Source of the DNA: Rhodospirillaceae bacterium
Lineage (GTDB): Bacteria; Pseudomonadota; Alphaproteobacteria; CACIAM-22H2
Assembly (NCBI GenBank): GCA_022843945.1
Contig: JALHMR010000007.1
Span: forward strand, 116,546 to 180,545
Reading direction: 5' to 3'
DNA: 64,000 nucleotides
Both the position numbers and the translations under genes were made by a program. Positions 1 through 16,373 of this stretch are shown one piece after another. Within the stretch, counting starts at the first letter, position 1, and the number at the start of each line of letters is the position of its first letter. The notes beneath the pieces are model-generated. The model saw nothing but the letters and a program-made list of their open reading frames with translations. It ran no database searches and had not been told where the DNA came from.

Positions 1-1133
<1,133 letters not shown>

Positions 1134-1181
1134 GCATCCGAAACGAGCGGCACTCACCATCGTTGCCATATGGGGGAGAAA

Positions 1182-2852
1182 ATGGCTTTTTCAGCAGAAA
1201 CACTACCCCGAGCAATACGTACTCTTCTTGAGCAGAACAATTATGAGGTCTCCGGTCCTTTGCAAATTCACGGGGCAGAGGTGGATCTCATTGCGAAGCG
1301 TAAGGACGATCCTTTCGCAGCAAATCTGTATATCGAAGCAACCATCGAGCACGTCGACAACGACAAGTACGGCAAGGATGTAGGTAAGTTTGCACTGATC
1401 CACACGATTGAGCCGCAGGCAAATTGCCTGATTGTATCGTCGACGGGCTTTTCCTTGCCGGTTCAGGAGCGTGCGAGCAAGAGCCGTATCCAAACGCTGA
1501 CCTATGAACAGCTCTTCTCAAAGTTCCAGAGGTTCGATCCGTATGTGCAACATGCTTTGGGTGATACGTCGTTGGGACGCGACCTAAAGTCGCTGAGCGA
1601 TACATATGAAGAGCCGGATTTCGACGACAGCTTCGGCAGTGAGCCGGCCACCAAATTTCTCGATACGTGGCGAGATAGCGCAGACACCAATCGTTGGCTG
1701 ATTGTCGTTGGCGAATACGGAACGGGAAAGACCGCGCTTACTAAGACGTTGCAATATCGCTGGCTGCGTAAATTCAAGAATGAGCCAAAACTTCCCATTC
1801 CATTTCGAATCGAGCTTCGAGATTTTTCGCGGCAGTTCGATGCGAACGGCCTTTTGCATCATTTCTTGGATAAGAACCATCTAGGCCATCTTCCTATAGA
1901 ATTTGTGACGGCGCTGATCCGTGCGGGGAGGATTGTTCTGATCCTCGATGGATATGATGAGATGGCTCAATACATGCACGCGCGAGAGCGGCGCGCGTGT
2001 CTCGAAACTTTGGCTGAGCTGTCTTCTGGGGGCGCGAAGGGCATCCTTACGAGCCGCCCGAATTATTTTTCCGAGGTGGAGGAATATCAAGTTTTCGAGA
2101 TTTTGTATTCGAGCATTAACGAGGGCTCTTATCGTCTGCGGCGAGGCCTCTCTGAAGCGGTCGACCGAGAAAAGAAAATTGATGAGTTGATCGAATCGCA
2201 TTTTCTTCAGCGACACGAGCGTCAGTTAAAAGACCTGACTCCGGCACAAACCGAAGCTCTGATTTCTCGGAAGCTGGCCGCCGATGCTGATTTGCGAAAT
2301 GCAGATTTCTCCCGTGCGACGCTCGACGCCGTATCGCTGAGCGGCGCAAACCTGGAAGGCGCTAGTTTCGCCCATGCACTGTGTTTCGGTGTTGATCTAA
2401 CGGGCGCTCTGTTGAAGGAAGCAAACTTTAAAGGCCTGGATGCGACATCTAGTATCATTGTTGCTCGCGATGAAGCATCGGAGGATGGGTTAAAAACAGA
2501 GCTTGAGGGCAATGAGGCATTGGGCTTTTTGAGTTACGCGGGCGCTATAACCGATGCCGTCCCTCGCTATTTCATCCTTCGAAACCAACCGGACTTCCCC
2601 ATTGTGGAAAAAATCTGCCGCAAATGTAGCGAGGGCTTAAGGCAGCGGCGAGGCTTGGAACAGCGAGGGGCCGCCCGCGCAAATCCAGATTTTGCTCGGA
2701 AATTTGTTCACTATGCCGAATCTAGGAGTTTGTTGGAGACACCCAAGGGCAGACCAGACCTTATTGAGGCGACGCCGCTTGGACGGGAGGTATTTAAGAA
2801 GTTCGTTGAACTAAAAGAGGTTGGGCCTGAGATAGGCGATTTCTTTGTCTAA
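1182..2852 (+). CDS. STAND/NACHT-type P-loop NTPase with N-terminal Mrr/PD-(D/E)xK-like domain and C-terminal pentapeptide repeats; candidate antiphage NLR-like protein
   Basis: The gene is sharply AT-richer than its flanks. Walker A is VVGEYGTGKTALT and Walker B is the NACHT-type RIVLILDGYDEM, followed by a TSR sensor-1-like motif (GILTSRPNYF). The N-terminus (EVDLIAKRKD...LYIEATIE) is restriction-endonuclease-like. Residues about 370-420 are pentapeptide repeats (ADLRNADFSRATLDAVSLSGANLEGASFAHALCFGVDLTGALLKEANFKG). A GGGGGAG RBS precedes the second ATG at 1182; the alternative start is 1170. Confidence 0.7.
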   Translation: MAFSAETLPRAIRTLLEQNNYEVSGPLQIHGAEVDLIAKRKDDPFAANLYIEATIEHVDNDKYGKDVGKFALIHTIEPQANCLIVSSTGFSLPVQERASKSRIQTLTYEQLFSKFQRFDPYVQHALGDTSLGRDLKSLSDTYEEPDFDDSFGSEPATKFLDTWRDSADTNRWLIVVGEYGTGKTALTKTLQYRWLRKFKNEPKLPIPFRIELRDFSRQFDANGLLHHFLDKNHLGHLPIEFVTALIRAGRIVLILDGYDEMAQYMHARERRACLETLAELSSGGAKGILTSRPNYFSEVEEYQVFEILYSSINEGSYRLRRGLSEAVDREKKIDELIESHFLQRHERQLKDLTPAQTEALISRKLAADADLRNADFSRATLDAVSLSGANLEGASFAHALCFGVDLTGALLKEANFKGLDATSSIIVARDEASEDGLKTELEGNEALGFLSYAGAITDAVPRYFILRNQPDFPIVEKICRKCSEGLRQRRGLEQRGAARANPDFARKFVHYAESRSLLETPKGRPDLIEATPLGREVFKKFVELKEVGPEIGDFFV

Positions 2853-3010
2853 GTCCTTCGTCCTCACCTCCCTTGCGAATCGTCCTTCGGGCTGATGTAC
2901 ATCACGTCGAAGGGGCCCATGCCATTGATCCGCAGCACGGTCTCGACCTCCACCCGCGCGTAATGCGGCTTGCCGGCGGGCAGGTGGACGAAGCTGCCGG
3001 CGGCGAAGGA

Positions 3011-3184
3011 TTAGAGGGTGCCGTCCTTGCCAAACGTCTCGACGTGGAAATCGATGGCCGATGCCGTATTAGCCGAAGCCTCGTCGTAAGTGTCGCTCTG
3101 GGCCACCACGACGCCGCCTATGCCGAGTGGATAGGCGACATAGCCATCCGCGTGCTTCTCGACGATGATCTCGATGCTTGTCAT
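3011..3184 (-). CDS. HicB-like antitoxin-domain small ORF (possible remnant or pseudogene)
   Basis: MTSIEIIVEKHADGYVAYPLGIGGVVVAQSDTYDEASANTASAIDFHVETFG resembles the HicB/UPF0150 N-domain. It starts 7 nt downstream of the antidote gene's stop. The same frame continues past a TAA into a cupin-motif-like fragment. Confidence 0.35.
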   Translation of the reverse strand: MTSIEIIVEKHADGYVAYPLGIGGVVVAQSDTYDEASANTASAIDFHVETFGKDGTL

Positions 3185-3191
3185 CGGCCAG

Positions 3192-3497
3192 CTACTCCGC
3201 CGCTGTCGCGGTGGCGTGCAGGCGTAGACCGAGGGCGCGAACAACCTTCAGCACCGTGCTGAATTCCGGATTGCCGTCGGGCGACAGGGCCTTGTAGAGA
3301 CTTTCGCGGCCTAGACCGGCCTCGCGGGCGAGCTGGGTCATGCCCTTGGCGCGGGCGATGTTACCGAGCGCGGCGGCGATGACGCGTGGGTCCCCGTCTT
3401 CCAGCGCCGCCTCCAAATAGGCGGCAATGTCCTCGCCGGTCTTGAGGAGGGCGGCGGTGTCGTAACGGGTGGTGCGAACCTTCTTTCGGCGGGCCAT
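3192..3497 (-). CDS. Type II toxin-antitoxin antidote protein (XRE-like HTH, 'addiction module antidote')
   Basis: 101 aa (MARRKKVRTTRYDTAALLKTGEDIAAYLEAALEDGDPRVIAAALGNIARAKGMTQLAREAGLGRESLYKAL) lying 9 nt downstream of the killer gene. An AGGAGT RBS is present. Confidence 0.8.
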   Translation of the reverse strand: MARRKKVRTTRYDTAALLKTGEDIAAYLEAALEDGDPRVIAAALGNIARAKGMTQLAREAGLGRESLYKALSPDGNPEFSTVLKVVRALGLRLHATATAAE

Positions 3498-3506
3498 TGG
3501 GTACTC

Positions 3507-3797
3507 CTAGAGATCGCGGGCGAGTGCTTGCGCCCGTTTGATGTCGCGGTCCTGCGTCTTCTTGTCGCCGCCCGCCAGCAGGATCACCAGCTCGCGGCCC
3601 TTCTGGGCGAAATACACCCGGTAGCCGGGACCATAGTCGACCCTTAGCTCGCTCACGCCGCCGCCGACCGGCTTGACGTCGCCGAACAGTCCGAGCGCCA
3701 GCCGGTCGAGCCTCAACTCGATCCGGGCCCGGGCCCGGCGATCGCGCAGGGTTTCAATCCACTTGGCGAACGGCGGGGTCTGCCGAACCTCTATCAC
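3507..3797 (-). CDS. Type II toxin-antitoxin killer protein (RelE/ParE superfamily, HigB-like)
   Basis: 96 aa (MIEVRQTPPFAKWIETLRDRRARARIELRLDRLALGLFGDVKPVGGGVSELRVDYGPGYRVYFAQKGRELVILLAGGDKKTQDRDIKRA), a typical killer-protein sequence, placed upstream of its antidote. Confidence 0.8.
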   Translation of the reverse strand: MIEVRQTPPFAKWIETLRDRRARARIELRLDRLALGLFGDVKPVGGGVSELRVDYGPGYRVYFAQKGRELVILLAGGDKKTQDRDIKRAQALARDL

Positions 3798-3870
3798 CGG
3801 ATAAAATGTATCCTATAAAATACGGCATGACAACCGGTGTCCCCCGATAAGATGATTTTGGAAGTGACAG
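3798..3870. promoter_or_regulatory. AT-rich divergent promoter/operator region between the RelE-like killer (minus) and higA (plus), with the inverted repeat GGATAaaatgTATCC
   Basis: A 73-bp AT-rich spacer separates the two divergent genes. It contains a 5-bp inverted repeat with a 5-nt spacer, then TATAAAATAC. An RBS (GGAAGTGACAG) precedes the higA ATG. Confidence 0.35.
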
Positions 3871-4179
3871 ATGCGTAAAATCGCACCGCGACAGATGCCG
3901 AAACCCGTTCACCCCGGCGCTATCCTCAAGGACGAGCTGGCCGCGCGCGGCGTCACCGCCAGCCGGCTGGCGCTTGATCTCGGCGTGCCGTCCGGGCGGA
4001 TCGCCGCGATCCTCAACGGCAAGCGCGCCCTGACCCCGGACACGGCGCTGCGCCTCGGGCGCTACTTCGCCATGCCGGCGCGCTTCTGGGTCGATCTGCA
4101 GGCGCAGTACGATCTCGCGGTGGCCGAGCAGAAATACGGCAAGCAGATTGCCGCCCAGGTGCGCAAGGTGGCGGCGTAG
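3871..4179 (+). CDS. higA: HigA-family antitoxin (XRE HTH), orphan with no cognate HigB upstream
   Basis: 102 aa (MRKIAPRQMPKPVHPGAILKDELAARGVTASRLALDLGVPSGRIAAILNGKRALTPDTALRLGRYFAMPARFWVDLQAQYDLAVAEQ), a classic HigA antidote sequence. Confidence 0.8.
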   Translation: MRKIAPRQMPKPVHPGAILKDELAARGVTASRLALDLGVPSGRIAAILNGKRALTPDTALRLGRYFAMPARFWVDLQAQYDLAVAEQKYGKQIAAQVRKVAA

Positions 4180-4311
4180 CCGGGCCGCGCGGGTACTCTG
4201 CCATGGATATCGCACCGATCAAGACCCGGCGGATCTGGCGCCTGCACCAGGGGCTGCGCATTCCCGCCGAGTCCTTGATCAGGGGCGGGCGGGATCGGGC
4301 CGCCTGACCGG

Positions 4312-4653
4312 CTAACGCGGCTTCTTCTTCGGCCGGGGCAGCGCGCGCTGCTTGCGCACCTTTCTGGGCGTCGTGCCGCCGCCATCCATCACCGCCTGCA
4401 CGTGCTCGAAGCCAAGCAGCAGGAAGGCGAACTCGGCGTTCATCGCCGTGTTCAGCTCCGGGCTGTCGCGGCCGGCATCCTTGGCGGCGATCAGCAGCAT
4501 CAGCCGGTTGGTGTGGATCAGCAGGTCGCCGAGCCGGGCGACCGCGGCCCCCGCCACGATCGCCGCTTCGAGGCGCTTCTTGAGCGCGGCGAGATCGAAC
4601 TTGTAGCGGCCGTAGCGGACGTGGTTGAGGGTGATGGTGAAGGAGGCGGGCAT
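4312..4653 (-). CDS. Hypothetical protein with a lysine/arginine-rich C-terminal tail
   Basis: The ORF is 4312..4692; the likely start is the internal Met at MPASFTITLNHVRYG. It ends in ...TPRKVRKQRALPRPKKKPR and I recognise no family. Confidence 0.45.
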   Translation of the reverse strand: MPASFTITLNHVRYGRYKFDLAALKKRLEAAIVAGAAVARLGDLLIHTNRLMLLIAAKDAGRDSPELNTAMNAEFAFLLLGFEHVQAVMDGGGTTPRKVRKQRALPRPKKKPR

Positions 4654-4778
4654 AAGAGCCCGATTGTCACCCCGGCGGAAGCCGGGGTCCATTCCTCATG
4701 TGGCACCATGGACCCCGGATCGCGCAACGTCAGAACGTTGCTTGTCCGGGGTGACGGGTAAAAGTTTGCGGCGCCAGC

Positions 4779-5234
4779 CTAGTTACAGCCCTCGATCGTC
4801 TCGATGCGCACGTGCGTCGTGCCCTGTTCCTCGAAGCCGAGCTGGCGCGCCGCGCCCTGGCTGACGTCGAGCACGCGGCCGCGGATATAGGGGCCGCGGT
4901 CGTTGACCAGCAGCTCGATGTGGCGGCCGTTCTGCAGATTGGTCACCTTGATGCGGGTGCCCAGCTTCAAGACCCGGTGCGCGGCGGTCGGGCCGTTCAT
5001 GTCGAAGATCGCGCCGCTGGCCGTCTGCCGGCCGTGATGCGTGCGGCCGTAGAAGGAGGCGATGCCTTCCTGGTAGTGGACATAGCGCGGGCAGGGTGGG
5101 GGCAGCGGCGCCGCCTCGGGCGGCGGCGGCGGGGGTGGCGGCGGCACTACCGCGGTCTGGCAGGCGGAGAGGGCCGCGGCGGTGAGCAGCGCCGCGGCAA
5201 TACTGGCGAGTGGTCGTCGTGTTCCTCGGCGCAT
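4779..5234 (-). CDS. rlpA: Septal ring lytic transglycosylase RlpA-family lipoprotein (DPBB domain)
   Basis: It has a lipoprotein signal (LLTAAALSAC), a poly-Pro linker and the DPBB motif block (GIASFYGRTHHGRQTASGAIFD...GRHIELLVNDRGPYIRGRVLDVS). Confidence 0.85.
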   Translation of the reverse strand: MRRGTRRPLASIAAALLTAAALSACQTAVVPPPPPPPPPEAAPLPPPCPRYVHYQEGIASFYGRTHHGRQTASGAIFDMNGPTAAHRVLKLGTRIKVTNLQNGRHIELLVNDRGPYIRGRVLDVSQGAARQLGFEEQGTTHVRIETIEGCN

Positions 5235-5291
5235 GCCGCATTATGAAACGGCGAATCCACGCCAGGCAAACGGTGGATTTTTTGTGACGGG

Positions 5292-6296
5292 CTACTCCGC
5301 TTTTGCGCCCGAGGCCTTGGTGATCGGCACCCAGATGTCGATCTCGTCCGACACGTACTTGGCGAACCTGGCCGGGGTGTAGCCGCGCATCGCCGGGGTG
5401 CCCATGTCCTCCAGCCGCTTGTTGATCACCGGGTCGCCCAGGGCCTCGTCGATGGCCTGGGCCATGCGGTTGGTGACGGTCGAGGGCAGGCCGGCGGGGC
5501 CGAAGATGCCGTACCAGGAATAGGCGCGGTAATCCTTGAGGCCGACCTCGGCCGCCGTGGGGATGTCCGGGATGATCGACGAGCGCTCGTCGGTCGCCAC
5601 GAACAGGGTCCGCAGCTCGCCCTTCAGATGATACTCCTTCATCAGGCTCGGGATGTCCGAGTTGAACTGCACCTCGCCGGCGACCATGGCGAGGAAGACC
5701 TGGCCCGCCCCGCGATAGGGCACGTGCGTCGCCTCGGTGCCGGTGCGCTGCAGGAAGTTGGCGCTGGCGATATGGCCGGTCGAGCCGACGCCGGAGCTGC
5801 CGTAGGAAAACTTGTTGGGGTTGGCCTTCAGCAGCGCGACCCACTCGGCCGTGTCCTTCGGGTCGATCCCCTTGCGGGTGACGCTGTGGCAGATCGGGAT
5901 GAAGTTGGTCGGGGCGATCGCGGTCAGGTCCTTGACCGGGTCGTAGGGCAGGTTGGCGTAGAGGCCCTTGGCGACGCCCGTGGAGGAGAGCGTGGCGAGC
6001 ACGAAGAGGTAGCCGTCGGGCGGCGACTTGGCGACGTAGTCGGTGCCGGTGGTGCTGCCCGCTCCCGGCCGGTTCTCGATGACCACCGCCTGCCCCAGGA
6101 TCTGCGAGATCTTGGGCCCGAGCAGGCGCATGGTGATGTCGGTGCCGCCGCCGGTGCCGAAGGGCACGACCATGCGGATCGGCTTGGCCGAGGGCCAGGC
6201 GCCGACCGCCTGGGCGCGCACGATGGTCGGGGCGAAGACAGTTGTCGCCGCGGCCGAAGCGAGGAAGCGGCGGCGGGTGGTGATCAGCTTGGGCAT
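5292..6296 (-). CDS. Bug/TctC-family tripartite tricarboxylate transporter substrate-binding protein
   Basis: A Tat-like signal (RRRFLASAAA) and Bug-family motifs (VENRPGAGSTTGTDYVAKSPPDGY, SSGVGSTGHI) are present. No tctAB genes are adjacent. Confidence 0.85.
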   Translation of the reverse strand: MPKLITTRRRFLASAAATTVFAPTIVRAQAVGAWPSAKPIRMVVPFGTGGGTDITMRLLGPKISQILGQAVVIENRPGAGSTTGTDYVAKSPPDGYLFVLATLSSTGVAKGLYANLPYDPVKDLTAIAPTNFIPICHSVTRKGIDPKDTAEWVALLKANPNKFSYGSSGVGSTGHIASANFLQRTGTEATHVPYRGAGQVFLAMVAGEVQFNSDIPSLMKEYHLKGELRTLFVATDERSSIIPDIPTAAEVGLKDYRAYSWYGIFGPAGLPSTVTNRMAQAIDEALGDPVINKRLEDMGTPAMRGYTPARFAKYVSDEIDIWVPITKASGAKAE

Positions 6297-6315
6297 CGGA
6301 ATCTCCCCTGTCGAA

Positions 6316-7089
6316 TCAGAACGAGCCGCCGTTAACGGGCAGCATCTGGCCGGTGATGAACTTGGCGCGGGACGAGGCGAAGAAGAGCGTGGCGTCGGCG
6401 ATGTCCTGAGCCTCGCCCAGCCGCCCCAGCGCGATACCCTGGAGCAGGCTCTTCTGGCGTTCGGCGCCGAGCGCGTCCCAGTCCTTCTGCTTCTCGATCT
6501 CGGTCAGCACCAGGCCGGGCGCCACGGTGTTGACCGTGATGCCGTACGGCCCAAGCTCGACCGCGAGCTGGCGGGTGAGGCCGAGCACCGCGTGCTTGGC
6601 GCTGGCGTAGGCCTGGATGCGGGTGCGCGACGGCCGGAAGGCGGCGCCCGAGCTGATATTGATGATGCGTCCGCGCCCCGCGGCTTTCATCTGGGGCGCC
6701 GCGGCGCGCACCGTGGCGAAGCTGGCGTCGACGTTGAGCGCGAAGATCGCATCCCAATCGGCGTCGCTGACCTCTTCCACCGGCTTGTGGCGCTGGCCCA
6801 GCATGCCGCCGGCGTTGTTGACCAGGACGTCGATGGCCCGGCCGCTGTCGCGCTCGATCGTGTGGATCCACTCGGCGCAGGCCCGGCGGTCGGTGAGGTC
6901 GGCAACCTGCGTGACGATACGCGCGCCTCTGGCGGTTTCAGCCAGGGCCTGGACCTGAATGTCGGTGGCGTAGACCAGGGCGCCGGCCGCGGCGAAGCTG
7001 CGGGCGATGGCCCGGCCGAAGCCGATGGCTGCCCCGGAGACGGCCACGACACGATCCTGGAATTCGCCATCGTGGAGCTTGGGGGTCAT
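6316..7089 (-). CDS. SDR-family oxidoreductase (3-oxoacyl-ACP reductase-like)
   Basis: The ORF is 6316..8136; the in-frame Met is at MTPKLHDGEFQDRVVAVSGAAIGFGRAIA. SDR motifs NNAG and YASAKHAV and an NAD-binding Gly motif are present. Confidence 0.85.
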   Translation of the reverse strand: MTPKLHDGEFQDRVVAVSGAAIGFGRAIARSFAAAGALVYATDIQVQALAETARGARIVTQVADLTDRRACAEWIHTIERDSGRAIDVLVNNAGGMLGQRHKPVEEVSDADWDAIFALNVDASFATVRAAAPQMKAAGRGRIINISSGAAFRPSRTRIQAYASAKHAVLGLTRQLAVELGPYGITVNTVAPGLVLTEIEKQKDWDALGAERQKSLLQGIALGRLGEAQDIADATLFFASSRAKFITGQMLPVNGGSF

Positions 7090-7173
7090 CGGCTTTGCAA
7101 GCCTGCGATGCAGACCGGGAGGGTGCCGAAGTAGAACCCGTCTGCTAGGCTTCGTCAAACAAGGTTGGGTTGT

Positions 7174-8208
7174 ATGACTGAAGCGGTCGTCATCTGGGGA
7201 GCGGGCGCCATCGGCGGCGTTATCGGAGCATGCCTTCGGCGGGCCGGCCACGAGGTGCTGTTCGTCGACGTCGTGCCCGAGCATGTCGCGGCGATCCGCG
7301 CCGGCGGCTTGCGCGTCGAGGGTCCGGTGGCCGAGTTCAGCGTCGGCGGCGAGGCCTGCCTGCCGCATCAGATGAGCGGCAAGCACAAGCTCATCCTGCT
7401 GGCGGTCAAGGCGCATCACACCGAGGCGGCGACGCAGGCCCTCAAGCCCTTCCTCGCCGAGGACGGCGCCGTGGTCTCCTGCCAGAACGGGCTCAACGAG
7501 CTGGTCATCCAGGAGATCGTCGGCCCCCGGCGGACCATCGGCTGCTTCGTCAATTTCTACGCCGACTATCTCGAGCCGGGGCGGCTGCACTACGCCAAGC
7601 GCGGCGCGGTCGTGGTCGGCGAGCTCGACGGGCGGAAGAGCGAACGCATCGTCGCGATTCACAAGCTGATGCAGGCCTTCGACGGCGACGCGCTTCTCAG
7701 CGACAACATCTTCGGCTTCCTCTGGGGCAAGGCGGGCTACGGCGCCATTCTCAAGGCCTCGGCGCTGACCAACGACACGATGGCCGAATTCATCGGCGAT
7801 CCCGGGCGCCGCGATCTGATCGTCGCCCTGGTGCAGGAGATCCTGGCCGTGGCCGAGGCGGAGAAGGTCAAGCCGCTCGGCGGTTTCGCCGGCTACGATC
7901 CCGAGGCTTTCATGCGCCGCGACAAGGCCGCCATCGCGGCGTCGATGGCCGCCATGGCGGAGTTCAACCGCGGCTCGGCCAAGGCGCGTAGCGGCATCTG
8001 GCGGGATCTTGCGGTGCGCAAGCGGCCGACCGACGTGGCGGCGCAGCTTGCGCCGGTGCGCGAAGCCGCGCGACGCCATCGCCTGGCCACGCCGGTCGCC
8101 GACCGGCTGGTGGCGCTGATCACCGACATAGAGCAAGGTCGGGCCGAAATCGGTCCAGCCTTGGCCGACGAGCTGGCTCTCGCTGTCCCGGAAAGGACCT
8201 CCGCATGA
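7174..8208 (+). CDS. 2-dehydropantoate 2-reductase family (PanE/ApbA-like) oxidoreductase
   Basis: A Rossmann motif (VVIWGAGAIGGVIGACL) is present and the overall length is PanE-like. Confidence 0.75.
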   Translation: MTEAVVIWGAGAIGGVIGACLRRAGHEVLFVDVVPEHVAAIRAGGLRVEGPVAEFSVGGEACLPHQMSGKHKLILLAVKAHHTEAATQALKPFLAEDGAVVSCQNGLNELVIQEIVGPRRTIGCFVNFYADYLEPGRLHYAKRGAVVVGELDGRKSERIVAIHKLMQAFDGDALLSDNIFGFLWGKAGYGAILKASALTNDTMAEFIGDPGRRDLIVALVQEILAVAEAEKVKPLGGFAGYDPEAFMRRDKAAIAASMAAMAEFNRGSAKARSGIWRDLAVRKRPTDVAAQLAPVREAARRHRLATPVADRLVALITDIEQGRAEIGPALADELALAVPERTSA

Positions 8209-9131
8209 ACGAGATGAGCAAGAAGCATCCCGACGGCGAGCCCTGGCAGTGGCCGGAGAAAACCTGGCGGCGTATCGTCGGTCGCGCCCGAGCGGGGCGC
8301 TCCCTGCGCCCCACCCATTGGCCGAACAACGCGCCGGCCGCCGTGTCGCTGTCCTTCGACGCCGACCACGACACCATTCCGCTGCGCGATGCTGACGAAA
8401 GCCCGATGCGCATCAGCCAGGGTCAGTACGGCAACCGCCAGGGCACGCCGCGCATCCGCCGGCTGATGGAGAAGCACGGCGTCAAGGTGTCGTTCTTCTA
8501 TCCCGCCGTGTCGGCGCTGCTCTATCCCGACGAGGCGCGCGCCGTGGCCCAGGACGGGCACGAGATCGGCATCCATTCGTGGATCCACGAGCGCAATACC
8601 ATCCTGCCCTACGAGGTCGAGCGCGACCTCAGCTTGCGCGCGCGCGACACACTGGAGAAAGTGACCGGCCAGCGCCCGGTCGGCATGCGCACAGCGAGCT
8701 GGGATTTCTCGCCGCGCACCCTCGACATCGTGCGGGAGATGGGCCTGCTCTACGATTCCTCGCTGATGGCCGACGACGACCCGTACGAGTTGATCTCCGA
8801 CGGCACCCCTACAGGAATCGTAGAACTCCCGCCGGAATGGATCCGCGATGACGCCGTCTATTTCAACATGCACCGCTTCAGCGGCCTGCGTCCCTACACG
8901 CCACCGTCGAGCGTGCTGGAGGTGTTCCTCGGCGAGCTCGACGGCGCGATCGAGGAAGGCGGGCTGTTCCTGCTCACCATGCACCCGCACCATATCGGCC
9001 ATCGCAGCCGCATGAAGCTGCTCGAGCGCGTGATCGAGCACGCCAAGGCGAAGAAGTGCTGGTTCGCCACCCATGCCGAGGTGGCCCAGTGGTGTAAGGA
9101 TAACGCCGCGACCGGGCCGCTAGGGCGGTAG
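8205..9131 (+). CDS. Polysaccharide deacetylase family protein (PuuE/chitooligosaccharide deacetylase-like)
   Basis: Motifs include LSFDADHDT, HSWIHE and MHPHHIGHRSRMKLLERVIEH. Its start overlaps the upstream stop by 4 nt. Confidence 0.75.
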   Translation: MNEMSKKHPDGEPWQWPEKTWRRIVGRARAGRSLRPTHWPNNAPAAVSLSFDADHDTIPLRDADESPMRISQGQYGNRQGTPRIRRLMEKHGVKVSFFYPAVSALLYPDEARAVAQDGHEIGIHSWIHERNTILPYEVERDLSLRARDTLEKVTGQRPVGMRTASWDFSPRTLDIVREMGLLYDSSLMADDDPYELISDGTPTGIVELPPEWIRDDAVYFNMHRFSGLRPYTPPSSVLEVFLGELDGAIEEGGLFLLTMHPHHIGHRSRMKLLERVIEHAKAKKCWFATHAEVAQWCKDNAATGPLGR

Positions 9132-9860
9132 GATTGCCGCCAGTTCGGCCGGACCGAGGATGCGGTAGCTGCCCGGCGCCAGGTCGTCGGGCAGCGTCAG
9201 CCGACCGATGCTCTCGCGATGCAGGCCCACCACGCGGTTGCGCACCGCGGCGAACATGCGGCGCACCTGATGATAGCGGCCTTCGGTGATCGTCACGGTG
9301 GCTGTGGTCGGCGACAGGGTTTCCATCGTCGCCGGCAGCAGCGGCTTGTCCTCGCCCTCCAGCATCAGCGTGCCCGAGGCGAAGGCCGCGGCTTCGCCGC
9401 CATGCATCGGCCATTTGAGGGTCACGTGGTAGCGCTTGGGCACGTGGTTCTTGGGCGAGATGATGCGGTGCAGGAGCATGCCGTCATCGGTCAGCAGCAG
9501 CAGGCCCGAGGTTTCCTTGTCCAGCCGGCCGATGGTCGACAGCGCCGGCTCGCGCACCTGCCAGCGCGGCGGAAACAGGCCGAAGACGAGGGGGCCGGCT
9601 TCCTTGCGCGAACAGGTCACGCCCAGCGGCTTGTTCAGCATCAGCGTCAGCCCTGGCGGCGGATCGAGCGGCTCGCCGTCGACCGTCATCCGGCCGGGCA
9701 GGTCGGGCGTGATGGCCAGGCGCTGATCGGCATCCTCGACGACATTTCCGTCGAGCGTGACGAGGCCGTCACGCACCATCTGCTGAACGGCCTTGCGCGC
9801 GCCGTAGCCGAGATTGGCCAGCAGCCGGTCCAGCCGGAGGGTGGTGGGGAGCGCGCTCAC
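9120..9860 (-). CDS. rsuA: RsuA-family rRNA pseudouridine synthase
   Basis: An S4 domain is followed by the catalytic motif GRLDKETSGLLLLTDDG, then YHQVRRMFAAV. Confidence 0.8.
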   Translation of the reverse strand: MSALPTTLRLDRLLANLGYGARKAVQQMVRDGLVTLDGNVVEDADQRLAITPDLPGRMTVDGEPLDPPPGLTLMLNKPLGVTCSRKEAGPLVFGLFPPRWQVREPALSTIGRLDKETSGLLLLTDDGMLLHRIISPKNHVPKRYHVTLKWPMHGGEAAAFASGTLMLEGEDKPLLPATMETLSPTTATVTITEGRYHQVRRMFAAVRNRVVGLHRESIGRLTLPDDLAPGSYRILGPAELAAILPP

Positions 9861-10774
9861 TTGACGGCCTCGTAGATCTTGTAGCCGCCGGCTTCGGCTT
9901 TCAGCTTGATCTGCTTGAACAGGGTTTTCATCACCCCTTCATAGGGCAGATGGCGATTGGCTGTCAGCCAGCAGGTTCCGCCCGCACGCAGGGCTTCGGC
10001 GGCGCGCCGGATGAAATCCTGGCCGAGAGCCTTGTCCTCGGCGCCGCCGTCGTGAAAAGGCGGGTTCATGATCACGAAGTCGAGGCCGTTCGGCGCCAGG
10101 CCGGCATCACGAAGGTCGGCCCAGCGGAGTTCGGCGCGCGGATCGTCGATGTTGCGGCGCGCGGCCTCGATCGCCCGGCGGTCGTTGTCGATCAGCGTCA
10201 GGCGGCGGATCGCCGGCGAGGCCAGCGCGGTGCGCGACAGGACGCCGATGCCGCACCCAAAGTCGGCGCCGTTCCCCGCCAGGGCAGGAAGATGCTGCAG
10301 GAGGAGGGCGCTGCCGGGATCGATCCGGTCCCAGCTGAAGACCCCGGGCTGCGACCACAGGCCGATCTCCGGGACGAGGCGCTGCGCGCCCGCGGCGATA
10401 GCCTCCTCCAGCCCGCTCAGCGCCTTGGGTCTTGGCGTGGTGCATATCCGGTAGTGACGCCGCGCCGTGTCGTCGACCGTGCAGCCGAAGGCGGTCAGTT
10501 CCCGCGCGATCCGCGTGCCGCCCTTGTCCCGGGGCGCCATGACGGTCAGCGGCGCGCCAGGTTCCAGGGCGCGCAAGGCGAGAGCGATGGCATAGCGCCG
10601 CTCCGCCGTCCCCGGGGGCGCCAGCATCGTCATGCCGGCGAGCGTCGCTTCGCCATGCTGCTCCAGCGCGGCCGCTCCGGGCATCAGCGGCGAGAATTGC
10701 AGCGCGGGCGTCGGCGACGGCATGAAGGCCGCCGGCATCGTGCCGTAGACGCCGAGATTTTCCGTTTCGCTCAT
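9857..10774 (-). CDS. Class I SAM-dependent rRNA (guanine-N2) methyltransferase, RsmC-like
   Basis: Carries the NPPFH catalytic motif and a GCGIGVLS SAM-binding motif. Overlaps rsuA by 4 nt. Confidence 0.7.
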   Translation of the reverse strand: MSETENLGVYGTMPAAFMPSPTPALQFSPLMPGAAALEQHGEATLAGMTMLAPPGTAERRYAIALALRALEPGAPLTVMAPRDKGGTRIARELTAFGCTVDDTARRHYRICTTPRPKALSGLEEAIAAGAQRLVPEIGLWSQPGVFSWDRIDPGSALLLQHLPALAGNGADFGCGIGVLSRTALASPAIRRLTLIDNDRRAIEAARRNIDDPRAELRWADLRDAGLAPNGLDFVIMNPPFHDGGAEDKALGQDFIRRAAEALRAGGTCWLTANRHLPYEGVMKTLFKQIKLKAEAGGYKIYEAVK

Positions 10775-10939
10775 GACCCTCGATTTCGCGCCGCGCTGGA
10801 ACTCTGTTAGCTTAATCGAGCTTCGTTGCTGGTGCCGGGAAATCGTTCGCTCTCCAGCGCCGCCCCCTCATTCTCGCCGCTGCTTCTGTTTTCCCATGAC
10901 CCGCTTCGACCAGTTCTCCGGGATTCGTCCCCGGTCGCC

Positions 10940-11836
10940 ATGACGGGGTTGTTCGGCATTGCATCCCGTCGTGGCGCCTATATCGCGCTCGCCTGCCTGT
11001 CGCTGATGTGGGGCCTGAACTGGGCGGCGATGAAGTTCGGGCTGCAATACGCCGATCCGATCATCTTCAACATCGAGCGCACCTGGGTGGCGATCGCCAC
11101 GCTGTTCGGCGTGCTGCTGCTAACGGGCAGGCGTTTCTGGCCCGAGTCCTGGCTCGCCGTCTGTGTCACGGGCTTCTGCCAGACCACGGTCAATTTCGGC
11201 GCTACCGCGATGGCCCTGGCCTCCGGCGGGGCCGGGCGCACGGCCGTGCTGGTGTTCACCATGCCGTTCTGGACCTTGCTGATCGCCTGGCCGGTCCTCG
11301 GCGAGCGGGTGCGCGGCAGCCAGTGGCTGGCCGTGGGCTGCGCGCTCGCCGGGCTGCTGCTCATCGTCGAGCCGTGGGACTGGCAGGGCGACATAGCGCC
11401 GAAACTCTGGGCGACGATTTCGGGATTCGGCTGGGCCGGCGGCACCGTGGCCCAGGCTTACTTCCAGCGCCGCCGCCGGCTGGAAGGCCTCACCTTGATG
11501 ACCTGGCAGATGGTCGTGGGCATCCTGCCGATCACTCTCATTCCGCTTTTCGTGTCGCTGCCGCCGGCCGAGTGGAACACCACCTATCTCGCCTCGATCC
11601 TCTACGCGGGCGTCGTCGCCAGCGGTATCGGCTTCGTCTTGTGGACCGGCATTCTCGCCTGGCTGCCGGCCGGTACCGCGGCCCTCAACATGCTGGTCAT
11701 CCCGGTGATCGCCCTCGTCTCGTCGATGCTGATCTTCGGTGAACGGCTCGATGCGTTGGAATGGGCGGGGATTGCAGCGATCGGCGTGGGTCTCGCCATC
11801 ATCTCGATACGCGCCTGGCGAGCGGCATACCACTGA
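10940..11836 (+). CDS. DMT/EamA-family transporter
   Basis: The ORF is 10826..11836; the internal Met at MTGLFGIASRRGAYIALACLSLMWG is the likely start. About 10 transmembrane helices in duplicated EamA topology. Confidence 0.8.
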   Translation: MTGLFGIASRRGAYIALACLSLMWGLNWAAMKFGLQYADPIIFNIERTWVAIATLFGVLLLTGRRFWPESWLAVCVTGFCQTTVNFGATAMALASGGAGRTAVLVFTMPFWTLLIAWPVLGERVRGSQWLAVGCALAGLLLIVEPWDWQGDIAPKLWATISGFGWAGGTVAQAYFQRRRRLEGLTLMTWQMVVGILPITLIPLFVSLPPAEWNTTYLASILYAGVVASGIGFVLWTGILAWLPAGTAALNMLVIPVIALVSSMLIFGERLDALEWAGIAAIGVGLAIISIRAWRAAYH

Positions 11837-11990
11837 TGCTGCAGTGCCACTTAAAATGCTGCGTTGCAGCGTATTTTCCTGCGACAGCCGCGGTTGCGCG
11901 GCGCGAACCGCGGGCCTAGCATCGTTCCTATCCAAGCGGCAAAGAGAGCCAAAGCGCTCCGTGCCGCAACGCCTACAGAGGGGGACACCC

Positions 11991-13067
11991 GTGTCCAAAC
12001 CGTACAACATTCTTATTCTGGGCGCGTCTTACGGCTCGCTCCTGGCCACCAAGCTTCTCTTCGGCGGACATACGATCCGCCTGGTGTGTCTGCCCGCGGA
12101 GGCTGACGCCATCAACGCCGACGGCGCGCGCGTGCGCCTGCCGGTGCGCGGCCGCCAGGATCTCGTCGAGATCCACACCAAGACGCTGCCGGGCAAGCTC
12201 TCGGCGAGCGGCGCCAACATGGTCAATCCGGGCGACTACGACCTGATCGGTCTCGCCATGCAGGAGCCGCAATATCGTTCGCCGGGTGTGCGCGAGCTGC
12301 TCGAAGCCGTGGCCAAGAGCCGCGTGCCCTGCATGTCGATCATGAACATGCCGCCGCTGCCCTACATGAAGCGCATTCCCGGCCTCGACGCCGACAAGCT
12401 GCGCCACGCCTATACCGACGCGACCGTGTGGGACAGCTTCGATCCCAAGCGACTGACCTTGTGCAGCCCCGATCCGCAGGCTTTCCGTCCGCCGGAAGAC
12501 AAGGTCAACGTGCTGCAGGTCACCCTGCCGACCAATTTCAAGGTCGCGCGCTTCGACGAGGACGGCCCGACCGCCATCCTGCGCGATCTGCAGAACGACG
12601 TCGAAGCCATTCGCTACGACGCGGGTGACGGCAACAAGATCGAGTTGCCGGTGAAACTCAAGCTTCATGATTCGGTGTTCGTGCCGCTCGCCAAGTGGAG
12701 CATGCTGATGACCGGCAACTACCGCTGCGTCACCAAGCAGGGCGCGCGCCCCATCCGCGACGCCGTGCACAGCGACCTCGAGGCCTCGCGCACCATGTAC
12801 AACTGGGTGCGCGACCTGTGCATCGGTCTCGGTGCGGCGCCCGAGGACCTCGTGCCGTTCGAGAAATACGCCGCGGCGGCGCAAGGCCTGGCGCGGCCGT
12901 CCTCGGCGGCGCGGGCACTCTTCGCCGGCGCTCCGAACATCGAGCGTGTCGATCGTCTGGTGCAGGGCATCGCCGCGCAAAAGGGCCTGCGCTCCGCCGT
13001 GCTCGACGAGACGGTGGCGCTGGTCGATGCCCAGCTCCAGGTCAATCGCAGCAAGGCGGCCGCATAG
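11991..13067 (+). CDS. NAD(P)-binding Rossmann-fold protein of unknown function
   Basis: A GTG at 11991 is preceded by a GAGGGGGA RBS. The N-terminus reads ILILGASYGSLLATKLL. The upstream Met-initiated part of ORF 11739 overlaps the DMT gene and looks non-coding. Confidence 0.55.
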   Translation: MSKPYNILILGASYGSLLATKLLFGGHTIRLVCLPAEADAINADGARVRLPVRGRQDLVEIHTKTLPGKLSASGANMVNPGDYDLIGLAMQEPQYRSPGVRELLEAVAKSRVPCMSIMNMPPLPYMKRIPGLDADKLRHAYTDATVWDSFDPKRLTLCSPDPQAFRPPEDKVNVLQVTLPTNFKVARFDEDGPTAILRDLQNDVEAIRYDAGDGNKIELPVKLKLHDSVFVPLAKWSMLMTGNYRCVTKQGARPIRDAVHSDLEASRTMYNWVRDLCIGLGAAPEDLVPFEKYAAAAQGLARPSSAARALFAGAPNIERVDRLVQGIAAQKGLRSAVLDETVALVDAQLQVNRSKAAA

Positions 13068-13077
13068 CGGCGGCCGC

Positions 13078-13200
13078 CTAGCGCTTCTTCGCGACGCGCC
13101 GCTTCGCTTTTTTGATCGGCTTGCCTTTCGGCCACGGCTGGTAGACGTAGCCAGCCGTGGTCGCGCAGGTCGCCTTTCCGGGCAGCGACTTCTTCTTCAT
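13078..13200 (-). CDS. Small (40 aa) lysine-rich ORF translationally coupled to the amidohydrolase (ATGA overlap)
   Basis: MKKKSLPGKATCATTAGYVYQPWPKGKPIKKAKRRVAKKR, which is below the ORF-track length cutoff. Its ATG overlaps the TGA of the upstream gene. Confidence 0.3.
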   Translation of the reverse strand: MKKKSLPGKATCATTAGYVYQPWPKGKPIKKAKRRVAKKR

Positions 13201-14222
13201 TTGGCCTTCTTCTTGAGCAGCTTGTCGAGCCGCGGGAAGACGCGGCGCGCGTTGCCCTCGTAGATCTTCTGCTTGTCGGCGGCGCTGAGCGTCGAGCCCT
13301 CGATGTAGCGCTTGGTGTCGTCGTAGTAGAAGCCGGTCTCGGGATCGACGCCGCGCACCGCCCCCACCATCTCCGAGGCGAAGAGCACGTTCTCCACCGG
13401 GATCACCTTGGTCAGCAGGTCGATGCCCGGCTGGTGATAGACGCAGGTGTCGAAGAACACGTTCTTCAGCAGGTAGTCCTTGAGCAGCGGCTTCTTCATG
13501 TCCTGCGCCAGGCCGCGGTAGCGGCCCCAGTGATAGGGCACGCCGCCGCCGCCATGCGGGATGATGAACTTGAGCGTCGGGAAGTCCTTGAACAGATCGG
13601 CGGTCAGGAACTGCATGAACGCGGTGGTGTCGCCGTTGATGTAATGGGCGCCGGTGGCGTGGAAGTTCGGGTTGCAGGACGTGCTGACATGGACCATGGC
13701 CGGCACCTCGAGCTCGACCATCTTCTCGTAGATCGGATACCAGTAGCGGTCGGTCAGCGGCGGATCGGTCCAGTAGCCGCCCGAGGGATCGGGGTTGAGG
13801 TTGCAGCCGATGAAGCCCAGCTCGTTGACGCAGCGCTCGAGTTCGCGGATCGAGTTCGACGGCGGCACGCCAGGGCTCTGCGGCAGCTGGCAGACGGCGA
13901 CGAAGTTCTCAGGGAAGATCTGGCAGACCCGGTAGATCAGGTCGTTGCAATGGTGCGACCAGTGTTCGCTGGTCGTCGCCGTGCCGACATGGTGCGCCAT
14001 GCCCGAGGCGCGCGGTGAGAAGATCGTCAGGTCGGTGCCGCGCTCGCGCTGGATCTTGAGCTGCGCGCCCTCGATGCTGGTGCGGATCTCGTCGTCGGTG
14101 ATGCGCAGGTCGCCCTTTTCGGGCACGTGCGCCTTGTCCTTGAGGGCGGCGATCTGGGCGTCGCGCCAGTCCTGCAGCTTCTTGGGGGCGGTCGTATAGT
14201 GGCCGTGGCAGTCGATGATCAT
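13197..14222 (-). CDS. Amidohydrolase-2 family protein (ACMSD/LigW-like metal-dependent decarboxylase/hydrolase)
   Basis: An N-terminal metal motif MIIDCHGHY with a GAGGAAAA RBS 9 nt upstream; the alternative start is 14258. The family fold runs through ...HVSTSC...HGGGG. Confidence 0.8.
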   Translation of the reverse strand: MIIDCHGHYTTAPKKLQDWRDAQIAALKDKAHVPEKGDLRITDDEIRTSIEGAQLKIQRERGTDLTIFSPRASGMAHHVGTATTSEHWSHHCNDLIYRVCQIFPENFVAVCQLPQSPGVPPSNSIRELERCVNELGFIGCNLNPDPSGGYWTDPPLTDRYWYPIYEKMVELEVPAMVHVSTSCNPNFHATGAHYINGDTTAFMQFLTADLFKDFPTLKFIIPHGGGGVPYHWGRYRGLAQDMKKPLLKDYLLKNVFFDTCVYHQPGIDLLTKVIPVENVLFASEMVGAVRGVDPETGFYYDDTKRYIEGSTLSAADKQKIYEGNARRVFPRLDKLLKKKAK

Positions 14223-14297
14223 CGCGTTTTCCTCGGGGGTGCTGTCTTCGGCCTGCATGCTAGAGCGGCGGCGGGCGCTCCGCTATAGTCCCGGCGC

Positions 14298-16373
<2,076 letters not shown>

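Follow-up and report, generated by a model that had tools for sequence, protein, structure and literature searches.

The 64,000-nucleotide stretch of DNA analysed here (hereafter, the window) carries, directly after the propionyl-CoA carboxylase gene pccB, a gene of foreign composition, and the question raised by this locus is whether that gene encodes a naturally compact NLR-like antiphage protein, as proposed in an earlier note on this DNA, or is a product of another history. With the integration of composition, synteny, homology and structural modelling, our results indicate that it is probably a recently acquired and internally deleted copy of a mobile, single-gene family of bNACHT-type NLR-like proteins.

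The open reading frame spans 1170..2852 on the forward strand and encodes 560 aa, or 556 aa when translation begins at the alternative ATG at 1182, in agreement with the single ORF previously described. The second start matches the family N-terminus and is preceded by GGGGGAGAAA, a purine-rich Shine-Dalgarno-like run at 1172-1181 within the forward-strand spacer that separates pccB from the foreign gene (1134..1181, GC 0.56); 1182..2852 (+) is given here as the coding sequence of the internally deleted REase-NACHT-pentapeptide-CTD protein. The NCBI call (P0001) begins at 1260, i.e., 26 codons past 1182 and at the 31st codon of the 1170 ORF, and this start falls within the REase domain. The GC and GC3 values of the gene are 0.512 and 0.542, against host values of 0.67 and 0.91 (pccB, 0.655/0.917; pccA, 0.686/0.912; remainder of the window, GC 0.672). 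It constitutes the sole 1-kb bin below 0.635 GC within the 64 kb, and composition returns to host level directly past the stop codon (2853-3010, 0.65). The drop in GC noted earlier is thus real, and the 48 % quoted for it corresponds to the minimum (0.487, lowest 300-nt segment) rather than to the mean. A promoter scan found no sigma-70-like site on the forward strand upstream of the gene, so its expression probably occurs by read-through from pccB.

At the upstream boundary, all 374 residues encoded by the 3' part of pccB (9..1133, +; carboxyltransferase, beta subunit, Pfam Carboxyl_trans E=9.6e-154) match relatives up to the C-terminus, and the foreign segment starts directly after the intact stop codon. 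The usual neighbour of pccB, pccA (14298..16373, +), is displaced 13.2 kb downstream. A tblastn comparison with 80 related loci showed that, among the nearest relatives, most leave 0-0.4 kb between pccB and pccA (L004 and L005 leave 3.2-3.3 kb); wherever a locus holds both genes, the distance does not exceed ~5.3 kb. None of the 80 has a family member less than 10 kb from pccB, and a pccB scan of genome contigs yielded no relative closer than 85% protein identity. Hence, the nearest relatives have pccB adjacent to pccA without this insert, as the horizontal acquisition proposed for the gene predicts, and the difference in GC3 (0.54 vs 0.91) likewise supports its foreign origin. Boundary repeats, an integrase or a tRNA at the insertion were looked for and none was present at the site: 1134-2852 has no meaningful repeats, direct or inverted, on its flanks, the pccB-pccA interval holds no mobility gene, and the tRNAs of the window are distant, at 18.6 and 48.2 kb.

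Downstream, the stop codon of the foreign gene is abutted by a possible cupin C-terminal remnant of host-like GC (2864..3007, reverse strand; recognized from its translation, with only a weak Cupin_2 match, E=0.1), followed by a short HicB-like ORF, possibly an antitoxin remnant (3011..3184, -; HicB_lk_antitox E=0.027, sub-threshold). Next to these lie a type II toxin-antitoxin pair (3192..3797, -), composed of a Gp49/HigB-like toxin (3507-3797; 29.5 bits vs a cutoff of 23.9) and a HI1420-type HTH antidote (3192-3497; dnstrm_HI1420, 111.5 vs 27), and an XRE-family HTH protein resembling HigA, for which no partner toxin is evident (3871..4179, +; Pfam HTH_3, 27.4 bits). The toxin-antitoxin genes invoked as defence-island context are therefore present, but they form a small patch of toxin-antitoxin genes and gene fragments rather than an island, and the 13-kb interval otherwise holds ordinary host-GC genes.

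The NTPase was correctly assigned to the STAND/NACHT group. Its nucleotide-binding domain (NBD; 1695..2285, +, with the Pfam-matched part at 1695-2087) scored 47.9 bits against a cutoff of 26.7 with Pfam NACHT (PF05729) at residues 176-306 of the 560-aa ORF, and other STAND/AAA models remained below cutoff, except for NPHP3_N (25.3 vs 24.8) over 31 residues at the P-loop. All three motifs reported earlier are intact, namely Walker A (GEYGTGKT, 1710-1733, +), Walker B (VLILDGYDEM, 1935-1964, +) and sensor-1 (ILTSRPNYF, with TSRP, 2043-2069, +); the retained NBD ends with its last strand and helix, ERQLKDLTPAQTEALISRKLAAD (2217-2285, +). The residues D256-G-Y-D-E260 are invariant across the family and carry the NACHT-specific Walker B signature D[GAS]hDE as defined by Kibby et al. 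(bioRxiv 10.1101/2022.07.19.500537). The AlphaFold2 (AF2) model of the protein is confident (mean pLDDT 89), and in Foldseek searches Avs4, NLRP3, NOD2, NLRP9 and NLRC4 outranked proteasome, ORC and Clp ATPases, with the alignments to NOD2, NLRC4 and NLRP3 covering the NBD portion only (~220-300 columns).

The size of the protein, conversely, sets it apart from all its relatives. From 369 homolog matches, the best 119 measure 834-972 aa (median 857), and P0001 alone is short. The family, of ~855 aa, is widespread, with 55-65% identity across phyla, and displays the architecture REase - NACHT (NBD-HD1-WHD-HD2) - pentapeptide beta-helix - probable winged-helix C-terminal domain. The window protein aligns with family positions 1-372 and ~670-855: BLASTP placed its residues 7-392 on positions 5-399 of the full-length member P0002 and residues 378-559 on positions 672-849, and a MAFFT alignment of 120 sequences showed a single 297-column gap in the window protein, after residue 372. 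The junction lies at 2283..2288 (+), with the breakpoint at 2285/2286 (…GCC GCC GAT / GCT GAT TTG…, …LAAD/ADLRN…). Since every relative is of ~855 aa and these 297 conserved columns are missing here, the compactness that had been regarded as an unusual design is the outcome of an in-frame internal deletion. Tblastn of six family mid-segments against the window gave noise only (E>=0.07), so the missing segment was not recovered and a rearrangement or split gene within the window was rejected.

The deletion removed HD1 with SLSGKPVIISYLL, WHD with GWRFSHNSLREFL, HD2 and ~6-7 pentapeptide repeats, including residues that are invariant in the family (P0002 numbering: G399/K400/P401 and F528/S529/H530/N531/R534/E535). 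The motif FSHNSLREF fits the WHD histidine motif of NACHT proteins, described as "highly conserved and defining" (Kibby et al., bioRxiv 10.1101/2022.07.19.500537). In the AF2 model of full-length P0002, a helical domain, a winged helix and a second helical bundle occupy positions 372-624, ahead of the beta-helix, and this model matched NOD2 (1.7e-11), NLRC4 (1e-9), NLRP3, NLRP9, NAIP5 and Avs4 over 700-800 columns. A complete NACHT module is recognized by a GxP-type motif in a helical domain and by a WHD histidine contacting ADP (equivalent to NLRC4 H443); the full-length relatives have both and in the window protein both are deleted, so the ~855-aa family is NACHT but the NACHT module of the window copy is incomplete. 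With WHD and HD1 absent, a defining part of the STAND/NACHT switch is lost, and the window protein is probably impaired.

Outside the gap, the copy shows no decay. The retained 556 residues contain neither frameshifts nor stop codons, deviate at 3 of the 157 columns that are highly conserved (the family median is 4), and have a mean identity to family members of 0.533 (0.530 for a typical member), which implies that the deletion is either recent or tolerated. This unrelaxed constraint is also compatible with continued selection for some function, a comparison of low power if the deletion is recent.

The N-terminal domain (residues 1-130; 1182..1571, +) bears on what the family might do. Its model resembled AF1548 (1y88, E=1.2e-4, TMt 0.50), NucS/EndoMS (2vld, 5gke) and SfsA (4dap) by Foldseek, which together with the Mrr_cat matches of relatives upholds the nuclease-like fold suggested earlier, with a non-canonical residue at the lysine position; a profile of the domain against PDB sequences gave no useful match. 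Residues D35 (1284-1286), E52 (1335-1337), T54 (1341-1343), K62, D66 and K69 are family-invariant, the first three lying in GAEVDLIAK (1272-1298) and YIEATIE (1329-1349). From the D...(D/E/Q)xK triad, D35 and E52 are therefore retained, and the canonical lysine position of PD-(D/E)xK is occupied by an invariant threonine (E52-A-T54); judging from their positions in the sequence, the nearby invariant K62 and K69 might stand in for this lysine. Because the canonical lysine is absent and some members match a Pfam model of inactive REases, the proposed effector activity is uncertain. The ~855-aa family may not be an antiphage nuclease system, its REase fold being catalytically inactive and serving as an adaptor or DNA-binding module; the output would then be a different one, or the family would act in some other conflict or in regulation. 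We consider this unlikely. In its favor, besides the threonine, NA-iREase1 (PF22722, "NACHT-associated inactive REase") matches 5/21 family N-domains and is the only model to match the window domain, weakly (E=0.13; no Mrr_cat match at E<=1). In addition, the iREase+NACHT+Pentapeptide cores in Table S1 of Kibby et al. carry separate effectors (caspase, TIR, calcineurin), and defence models did not recognize these proteins: the best match in PADLOC-DB 2.0 was PDC-S60 (E=4.3e-5), over the P-loop region only, with no significant full-length match to a defence-protein model, and the NCBIfam defence models did not recognize the window protein either, full-length relatives faring no better with either collection. 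Against it, the catalytic Mrr_cat model (PF04471) matches 16 of the 21 N-domains and more strongly (best E=3.5e-9), P0004 exceeding its threshold (26.3 bits vs 21); moreover, D35, E52, K62, D66 and K69 are invariant, and the family has no other effector domain.

Beyond the junction, the remaining pentapeptide-repeat beta-helix (2286..2450, +) comprises 10-11 pentads (ADLRN ADFSR ATLDA VSLSG ANLEG ASFAH ALCFG VDLTG ALLKE ANFKG), compared with ~16-18 in full-length relatives, in line with the count of at least ten consecutive repeats after the NTPase given previously. It scored 37.1 bits with Pfam Pentapeptide (PF00805; cutoff 20.2), matched PDB pentapeptide proteins by sequence (E~4e-9) and resembled Alr1298 in Foldseek. 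The C-terminal domain (CTD) of ~120 aa (2481..2849, +; RQRRGLEQRGAA … TxxGR), with pLDDT >90, is probably a MarR-like winged helix: matches to winged-helix models were all sub-threshold but consistent (DUF6293_C in 7/22, HTH_45 in 5/22 and S19e in 3/22), and its profile retrieved from the PDB only the MarR-type regulators 5cyv and 3fm5 (E~0.08). The CRKC pair pointed out in this region (2616-2627) is present but not conserved, the first Cys occurring in 32/119 sequences and the second position being Leu in 102/119.

These data allow the readings of the short protein itself to be weighed. It could be an intact, naturally compact bNACHT/Avs-like antiphage protein in which nuclease, NACHT and pentapeptide sensor cooperate, an improbable reading on our assessment. 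The open reading frame, the intact Walker A, Walker B and sensor-1, the family-typical levels of conserved residues, the confident AF2 model and the adjacent toxin-antitoxin genes would all suit such a protein; nevertheless, it lacks HD1, WHD and HD2, which are invariant in all the ~855-aa relatives, and WHD is among the features that define STAND/NACHT modules. Furthermore, neither of two large searches yielded a second short member: the best 150 matches of an exhaustive phmmer search, run over 1.84e9 representatives, included no further short variant, and family members matched in two stretches, P0001 alone being collinear. A natural compact subfamily, as might be read from phmmer matches of ~480-540 aa, was rejected; P0177, the one ~530-aa match examined, covers the family from position ~305 onwards, including the region absent from the window copy, which identifies it as an N-terminally cut, contig-truncated fragment.

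Very unlikely, in our view, is that the shortened protein has a new role, either as a nucleotide-binding decoy or dominant-negative partner of related NLR-like proteins, or as a DNA-binding, gyrase-type DNA mimic whose pentapeptide helix and winged helix would operate without STAND switching. Its domains are retained without decay, the CTD resembles a winged helix, and the repeat region is weakly similar (NCBIfam, PDB) to MfpA and Qnr, which act as DNA mimics; however, the surroundings of the locus showed no further NACHT gene, our searches returned no precedent, and a unique singleton allele is more simply a recent lesion. Also very unlikely is a functional "mini-NLR", in which the REase-fold effector and a bare NBD would be wired to a short pentapeptide/winged-helix sensor for ligand-triggered defence or another regulated activity with no HD1-WHD-HD2 lever; if true, it would mean that a STAND switch can work without a winged-helix domain. 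Finally, an assembly or sequencing artefact hiding a full-length ~855-aa gene is very unlikely: only one assembly is available, P0001 is a singleton cluster from one contig and a repeat region could in principle confuse assemblers, but the junction is in frame, its left breakpoint lies in unique NBD sequence, GC is uniform across it (0.508 vs 0.519), and no long direct repeats involve 1170-2852, the pentapeptide repeats not being repeated at the DNA level.

The internally deleted copy thus remains the preferred reading, and by analogy with bNACHT proteins, Avs and animal NLRs a mechanism can be proposed. In full-length members, the repeat/C-terminal module would sense a phage-derived ligand, which would release the closed, ADP-locked WHD/NBD state and allow the NACHT module to oligomerise; the N-terminal nuclease-fold domains, brought together, might then act on DNA and stop infection. 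In the window copy, the in-frame loss of ~297 residues has brought the eleventh-from-last pentapeptide repeat immediately behind the NBD, and the remnant of REase, NBD, short beta-helix and CTD probably still folds and binds nucleotide. With the autoinhibition and transduction lever lost, along with much of the oligomerisation surface, the copy most likely no longer works as a defence switch and would therefore be harmless to keep.

Among other hosts, full-length members are always stand-alone genes, and in other high-GC genomes they are again low in GC (0.41 vs 0.67, 0.51 vs 0.61 and 0.51 vs 0.71). Their context is defence-like: as at the window copy, toxin-antitoxin cassettes neighbour the members at loci L090 and L091, and possibly L089; the member at L081 adjoins the last part of a prophage tail module, together with metacaspase/WD40 genes, and that at L083 a T6SS effector island. 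Carriage of the family by phages or plasmids was rejected, as phage sequences gave no family match and plasmids only distant NACHT proteins (22-29% identity). At L086/L087, an otherwise intact 855-codon gene contains one in-frame stop codon; a natural two-gene form (a 579-aa NACHT protein plus a 247-aa Pp/CTD protein) was rejected, given that the translation shows a single in-frame stop. That copy is knocked out by the stop codon, so in-place inactivation recurs in the family; taken with the window deletion, this agrees with the view that genes of this sort impose a cost and are frequently lost. The locus is one example of the turnover of a mobile NLR-like candidate immune gene, which entered a variable pccB-pccA hotspot next to toxin-antitoxin cassettes and was most likely disabled afterwards by an in-frame deletion. 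It also suggests that, in genome scans, family length should be checked before a compact architecture is called new, since compactness here equals a deletion of ~0.9 kb. The more useful lead is the full-length family, a bNACHT clade that is widespread and well conserved. Its presumptive sensor consists of the pentapeptide beta-helix together with the winged-helix C-terminus, its REase-fold domain has a non-canonical active site, and the window allele, which lacks WHD, could be used as a natural control for it.

Regarding known systems, the tripartite effector/NACHT/sensor architecture is found at the family level, and the window copy keeps the end modules with the central one truncated. The best PDB match of the window model is Avs4 (AVAST type 4; 8dgf; E=1.9e-6, 360 columns), a likeness at the fold level only, shared in the Mrr-like nuclease N-terminus and STAND NTPase. 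Avs4, however, is of 1541-1579 aa with a TPR-like sensor, its NCBIfam model scores 11 bits here against a cutoff of 1500, and the NTPase of the present family is NACHT-clade by Pfam and Walker B signature. The TPR-like sensor for phage terminase or portal that marks Avs/AVAST proteins is absent, no Avs model matched, and the sensor consists of pentapeptide repeats plus a winged helix.

With the animal NLRs NOD2, NLRC4, NLRP3 and NAIP5, the full-length model superposes over NBD-HD1-WHD-HD2 plus repeats, and the family carries the FxHxSxxEF-type WHD His motif; it differs in its identity of only 11-14%, in a pentapeptide beta-helix instead of LRR and in a nuclease fold instead of CARD/PYD/BIR, and the window copy keeps the NBD only. 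The repeats form the right-handed quadrilateral beta-helix of A(D/N)(L/F)xx pentads known from MfpA, Qnr, Alr1298 and HetL, but here as a ~55-90-residue module of an NLR-like protein and not as a stand-alone DNA mimic; scores with NCBIfam pentapeptide-protein models were all far below cutoffs.

The bNACHT proteins offer the closest parallels in layout. REase and Pp domains are catalogued among them, and REase-bearing bNACHT25 is listed as phage-protective (Kibby et al., 10.1101/2022.07.19.500537), the only paper retrieved in our literature search with both "bNACHT" and "pentapeptide"; the domains named there for the tested proteins include no pentapeptide repeat. The family shares with REase-bearing bNACHT25/bNACHT32 (clade 6) the REase-fold N-terminus, the NACHT with D[GAS]hDE, the C-terminal repeat region, the WHD histidine (in full-length members), the single-gene form and a patchy, HGT-like distribution. 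A close relationship to bNACHT25 was nonetheless rejected in favor of a remote one (20% identity over 257 aa; hhalign probability 68%, P-loop region only). The family also has pentapeptides and a winged helix rather than NCH1 and a REase without the canonical Lys, and the window copy lacks HD1-WHD-HD2. The Corallococcus protein WP_147454831.1 ("REase+NACHT", clade 7) resembles P0002, by coordinates only, in its REase at 4-116 and NACHT from 183. Clade 11 (Kibby et al., Table S1) has the same order of REase fold, NACHT and pentapeptide, in an iREase-NACHT-Pentapeptide-beta-propeller core whose REase is annotated as inactive (NA-iREase1), the model that weakly matches this family; it differs in that its proteins have additional effectors at the N-terminus (caspase, TIR, calcineurin) and sensors made of long WD40/beta-propellers, both absent here, where the protein ends in a small winged-helix-like domain. 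As pentapeptide and REase domains are already among bacterial NACHT architectures, the layout is not unusual, contrary to the novelty once attached to the pentapeptide sensor, and the window gene most likely encodes a damaged version of a candidate antiphage protein whose kind is already catalogued, and not a novel compact design.

The low-GC gene that follows pccB lies in an ORF of 560 aa (1170..2852, + strand), within which GGGGGAGAAA precedes a second ATG at 1182; since every relative has its N-terminus at the position of this second ATG, the protein, as read from the sequence, probably starts there and comprises 556 aa. The identical protein called by NCBI (P0001, 530 aa) begins at 1260, which lies 26 codons downstream of the ATG at 1182 and is codon 31 of the 1170 ORF. 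By starting at a Leu codon inside the gene, this public annotation (MQIHGAEV…) loses the initial helix and strand of the REase-fold domain (window 1182-1259). The GC and GC3 values of the gene are 0.512 and 0.542, versus 0.655 and 0.917 for pccB, 0.686 and 0.912 for pccA, and a GC of 0.672 for the remaining window; it constitutes the sole 1-kb bin below 0.635 GC in the 64 kb, the foreign composition being confined to 1134-2852 and the GC returning to a host-like level directly after the stop codon. The 48% GC proposed in the earlier note corresponds to the local minimum, the mean being 51%. All motifs quoted there are present, and the Pfam matches to NACHT (47.9 bits against a cutoff of 26.7) and to Pentapeptide (37.1 bits against 20.2) are significant. 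The horizontal origin, which the GC3 contrast supports, and the domain assignments were borne out.

Among 5.8 billion protein clusters searched, 369 relatives were retrieved, the best 119 of which display lengths of 834-972 aa (median 857) and identities of 55-65%, and come from Myxococcota, Geobacter, Actinomycetota, Burkholderia, Azospirillum, Cyanobacteria, Verrucomicrobia and many metagenomes; in this set of best relatives, the short form is represented by the window protein alone. By BLASTP, its residues 7-392 correspond to residues 5-399 of the full-length reference P0002, and residues 378-559 to 672-849, while an alignment of 120 sequences opens a single gap, 297 family columns long, behind window residue 372. 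The junction reads …RKLAAD/ADLRNADF…, encoded by …GCC GCC GAT/GCT GAT TTG… at 2283-2288, and the missing segment was not found elsewhere within the window. Exhaustive searching of 1.84 billion representatives with phmmer gave 79 clusters at E<=1e-30, in which the query is matched in two stretches by family members and P0001 alone is collinear with it. Matches of ~530 aa hinted at a possible compact subfamily; the one examined, P0177, is an N-terminally cut fragment still holding the region absent from the window protein. The compact size and unusual layout previously attributed to this protein are therefore artefacts of the deletion.

Regarding the N-terminal domain, the window copy matches NA-iREase1 at E=0.13 only, which is weak; among 21 family N-domains, 16 match Mrr_cat (best E=3.5e-9), with the relative P0004 above its threshold, and 5 match PF22722, "NACHT-associated inactive REase 1". 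For the model of the window protein, Foldseek retrieved the REase-fold proteins AF1548, NucS/EndoMS and SfsA. Within the family D35 and E52 are invariant, as are K62, D66 and K69, and the canonical Lys position is occupied by an invariant Thr (E-A-T), in agreement with the putative nuclease residues having been described as non-canonical. The window copy harbors 10-11 pentads versus ~16-18 in full-length members. The C-terminal ~120 aa yielded sub-threshold matches only, consistently to winged-helix proteins (DUF6293_C, HTH_45, S19e and MarR-type regulators); the cysteines of the CRKC pair highlighted earlier in this region are not conserved in the family.

The deleted segment includes some of the most conserved positions of the family, among them SLSGKPVIISYLL, with the invariant G399-K-P401 of P0002, and GWRFSHNSLREFL, with the invariant F528, S529, H530, N531, R534 and E535. 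An AF2 model of full-length P0002 (pLDDT 83.7) places a helical domain after the NBD (372-416), a winged helix (428-547, with strands at 515-528 and then a helix after the FSHN motif), a second helical bundle (560-624) and a beta-helix from 634. Since Foldseek aligned this model over 700-800 columns to NOD2 (1.7e-11), NLRC4 (1e-9), NLRP3, NLRP9, NAIP5 and Avs4, the predicted structure indicates that the family is truly an NLR-like NACHT protein. The window protein, modelled confidently (pLDDT 89.2), retains a complete NBD, with Walker A, the DGYDE Walker B, the TSRP sensor-1 and the last strand and helix, and lacks HD1, WHD, HD2 and ~6-7 pentads; its model matches NLRs over the NBD only (~220-300 columns for NOD2, NLRC4 and NLRP3). 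According to Kibby et al. (bioRxiv 10.1101/2022.07.19.500537), a C-terminal wHTH/WHD extension unifies STAND modules, and the WHD histidine (NLRC4 H443) is highly conserved and defining; when it is mutated, NACHT proteins of humans and bacteria alike become hyperactive.

In view of its architecture, fold and context, the most plausible mechanism for the family is that of characterised bNACHT, Avs and NLR proteins: the pentapeptide beta-helix and winged helix would serve as sensor, a bound ligand would release the NBD-WHD from its ADP-locked state, and oligomerisation would follow, with activation of the REase-fold domains at the N-terminus as the outcome. PADLOC and NCBIfam defence models did not recognise the family. 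As both the lever and a large part of the oligomer interface are missing from the window allele, switching is most likely lost or severely impaired. Counting against such a loss, the retained parts show no relaxed constraint, with deviations at 3 of 157 conserved columns (family median 4) and an identity of 0.533 versus 0.530 in the family; such a pattern is what a recent deletion would leave, and the GC3, having hardly ameliorated, is in keeping with a recent event. Some room is left for a retained or altered function, and a functional WHD-less mini-NLR we consider highly improbable.

The surrounding interval was compared among related loci, the pccB of the nearest relatives being 79-85% identical; no closer genome was found among the related genomes searched. 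The pccB-pccA gap spans 13.2 kb in the window (1134-14297), and in most nearest relatives both genes are adjacent or at most 0.4 kb apart, with 3.2-3.3 kb in two loci (L004 and L005) and ~5.3 kb as the widest gap among related loci with both genes. Genes have been gained repeatedly at this intergenic position in Alpha-, Beta- and Gammaproteobacteria. No family member was found within 10 kb of pccB in any relative compared, nor was any integrase, tRNA or flanking repeat marking the insertion at 1134-2852. No promoter-like site was found before the window gene, which may thus be read through from pccB. Downstream lie a possible cupin C-terminal remnant (2864-3007, - strand; …GSFVHLPAGKPHYARVEVE…; Pfam E=0.1, below threshold) and a short HicB-like ORF (3011-3184, - strand; Pfam E=0.027, below threshold), which look like a patchwork of gene remnants from successive insertions and deletions. 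The cupin-like fragment is in the same frame as the HicB-like ORF, directly after its stop codon, and adjoins the NACHT stop codon. These remnants are followed by a Gp49/HI1420 toxin-antitoxin pair and, divergent from it, a HigA-like XRE-family HTH gene without a partner toxin (3871-4179, + strand), so that the toxin-antitoxin neighbours mentioned in the earlier note are indeed present; the spacer between them (3805-3856) contains promoter-like hexamers on both strands. From position ~4.8 kb onwards, up to pccA, the interval carries ordinary genes of host GC (RlpA-like, TctC, SDR, pseudouridine synthase, methyltransferase, EamA transporter and amidohydrolase). ORFs of 126, 393 and 442 aa (4312-4692, -; 7893-9074, -; 11739-13067, +) have no Pfam match at E<=0.01-0.1, and the latter two, which in this high-GC DNA coincide in part with long ORFs of the opposite strand, may not be real genes.

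Full-length relatives are also low in GC versus their hosts (0.41 vs 0.67, 0.51 vs 0.61 and 0.51 vs 0.71), and apparently the family either spreads from a donor pool of lower GC or disappears before it can ameliorate. In three loci (L081, L083 and L085; genes at 8001-~10570) the GC of the family gene stays at 0.41-0.51, a range that includes the window copy (0.51), at any host GC of 0.61-0.71. These relatives are always stand-alone genes, with neighbours including toxin-antitoxin cassettes, the end of a P2-like prophage tail module together with metacaspase/WD40 genes, and a T6SS effector island; no close relative was found on sequenced phages or plasmids. In Azospirillum doebereinerae CP173190.1 (L081:1-18580) and in L082, the full-length gene (GC 0.41, genome 0.67) stands directly after the tail module (sheath, tube, tape measure, gpU, gpX and gpD) and is followed by DUF6232, metacaspase and caspase-WD40 genes, a dense conflict-system neighbourhood. 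Two metagenome contigs (L086:143-2710, ERZ27315212 k141_5439279; and L087, SRR14689443) carry an 855-codon ORF broken by a single in-frame stop (…MPLL*TAWRS…); translation as one ORF with one stop codon rules out the two-gene form annotated (579 aa and 247 aa). This constitutes a second, independent in-place inactivation in the family, seen in two samples.

Bacterial NACHT architectures with REase effectors and pentapeptide repeats have been catalogued by Kibby et al., whose Table S1 lists a clade 7 Corallococcus "REase+NACHT" entry, with domain coordinates, as listed, the same as those of the family, and clade 11 "iREase+NACHT+Pentapeptide+beta-propeller" cores. The REase-bearing bNACHT25 (clade 6), listed there as protective against T2, T4, T6, lambda and MS2, is remote from the family (20% identity), with an hhalign match limited to the P-loop. 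The family thus forms a candidate antiphage clade of an already known kind, with the window gene as a degenerate member.
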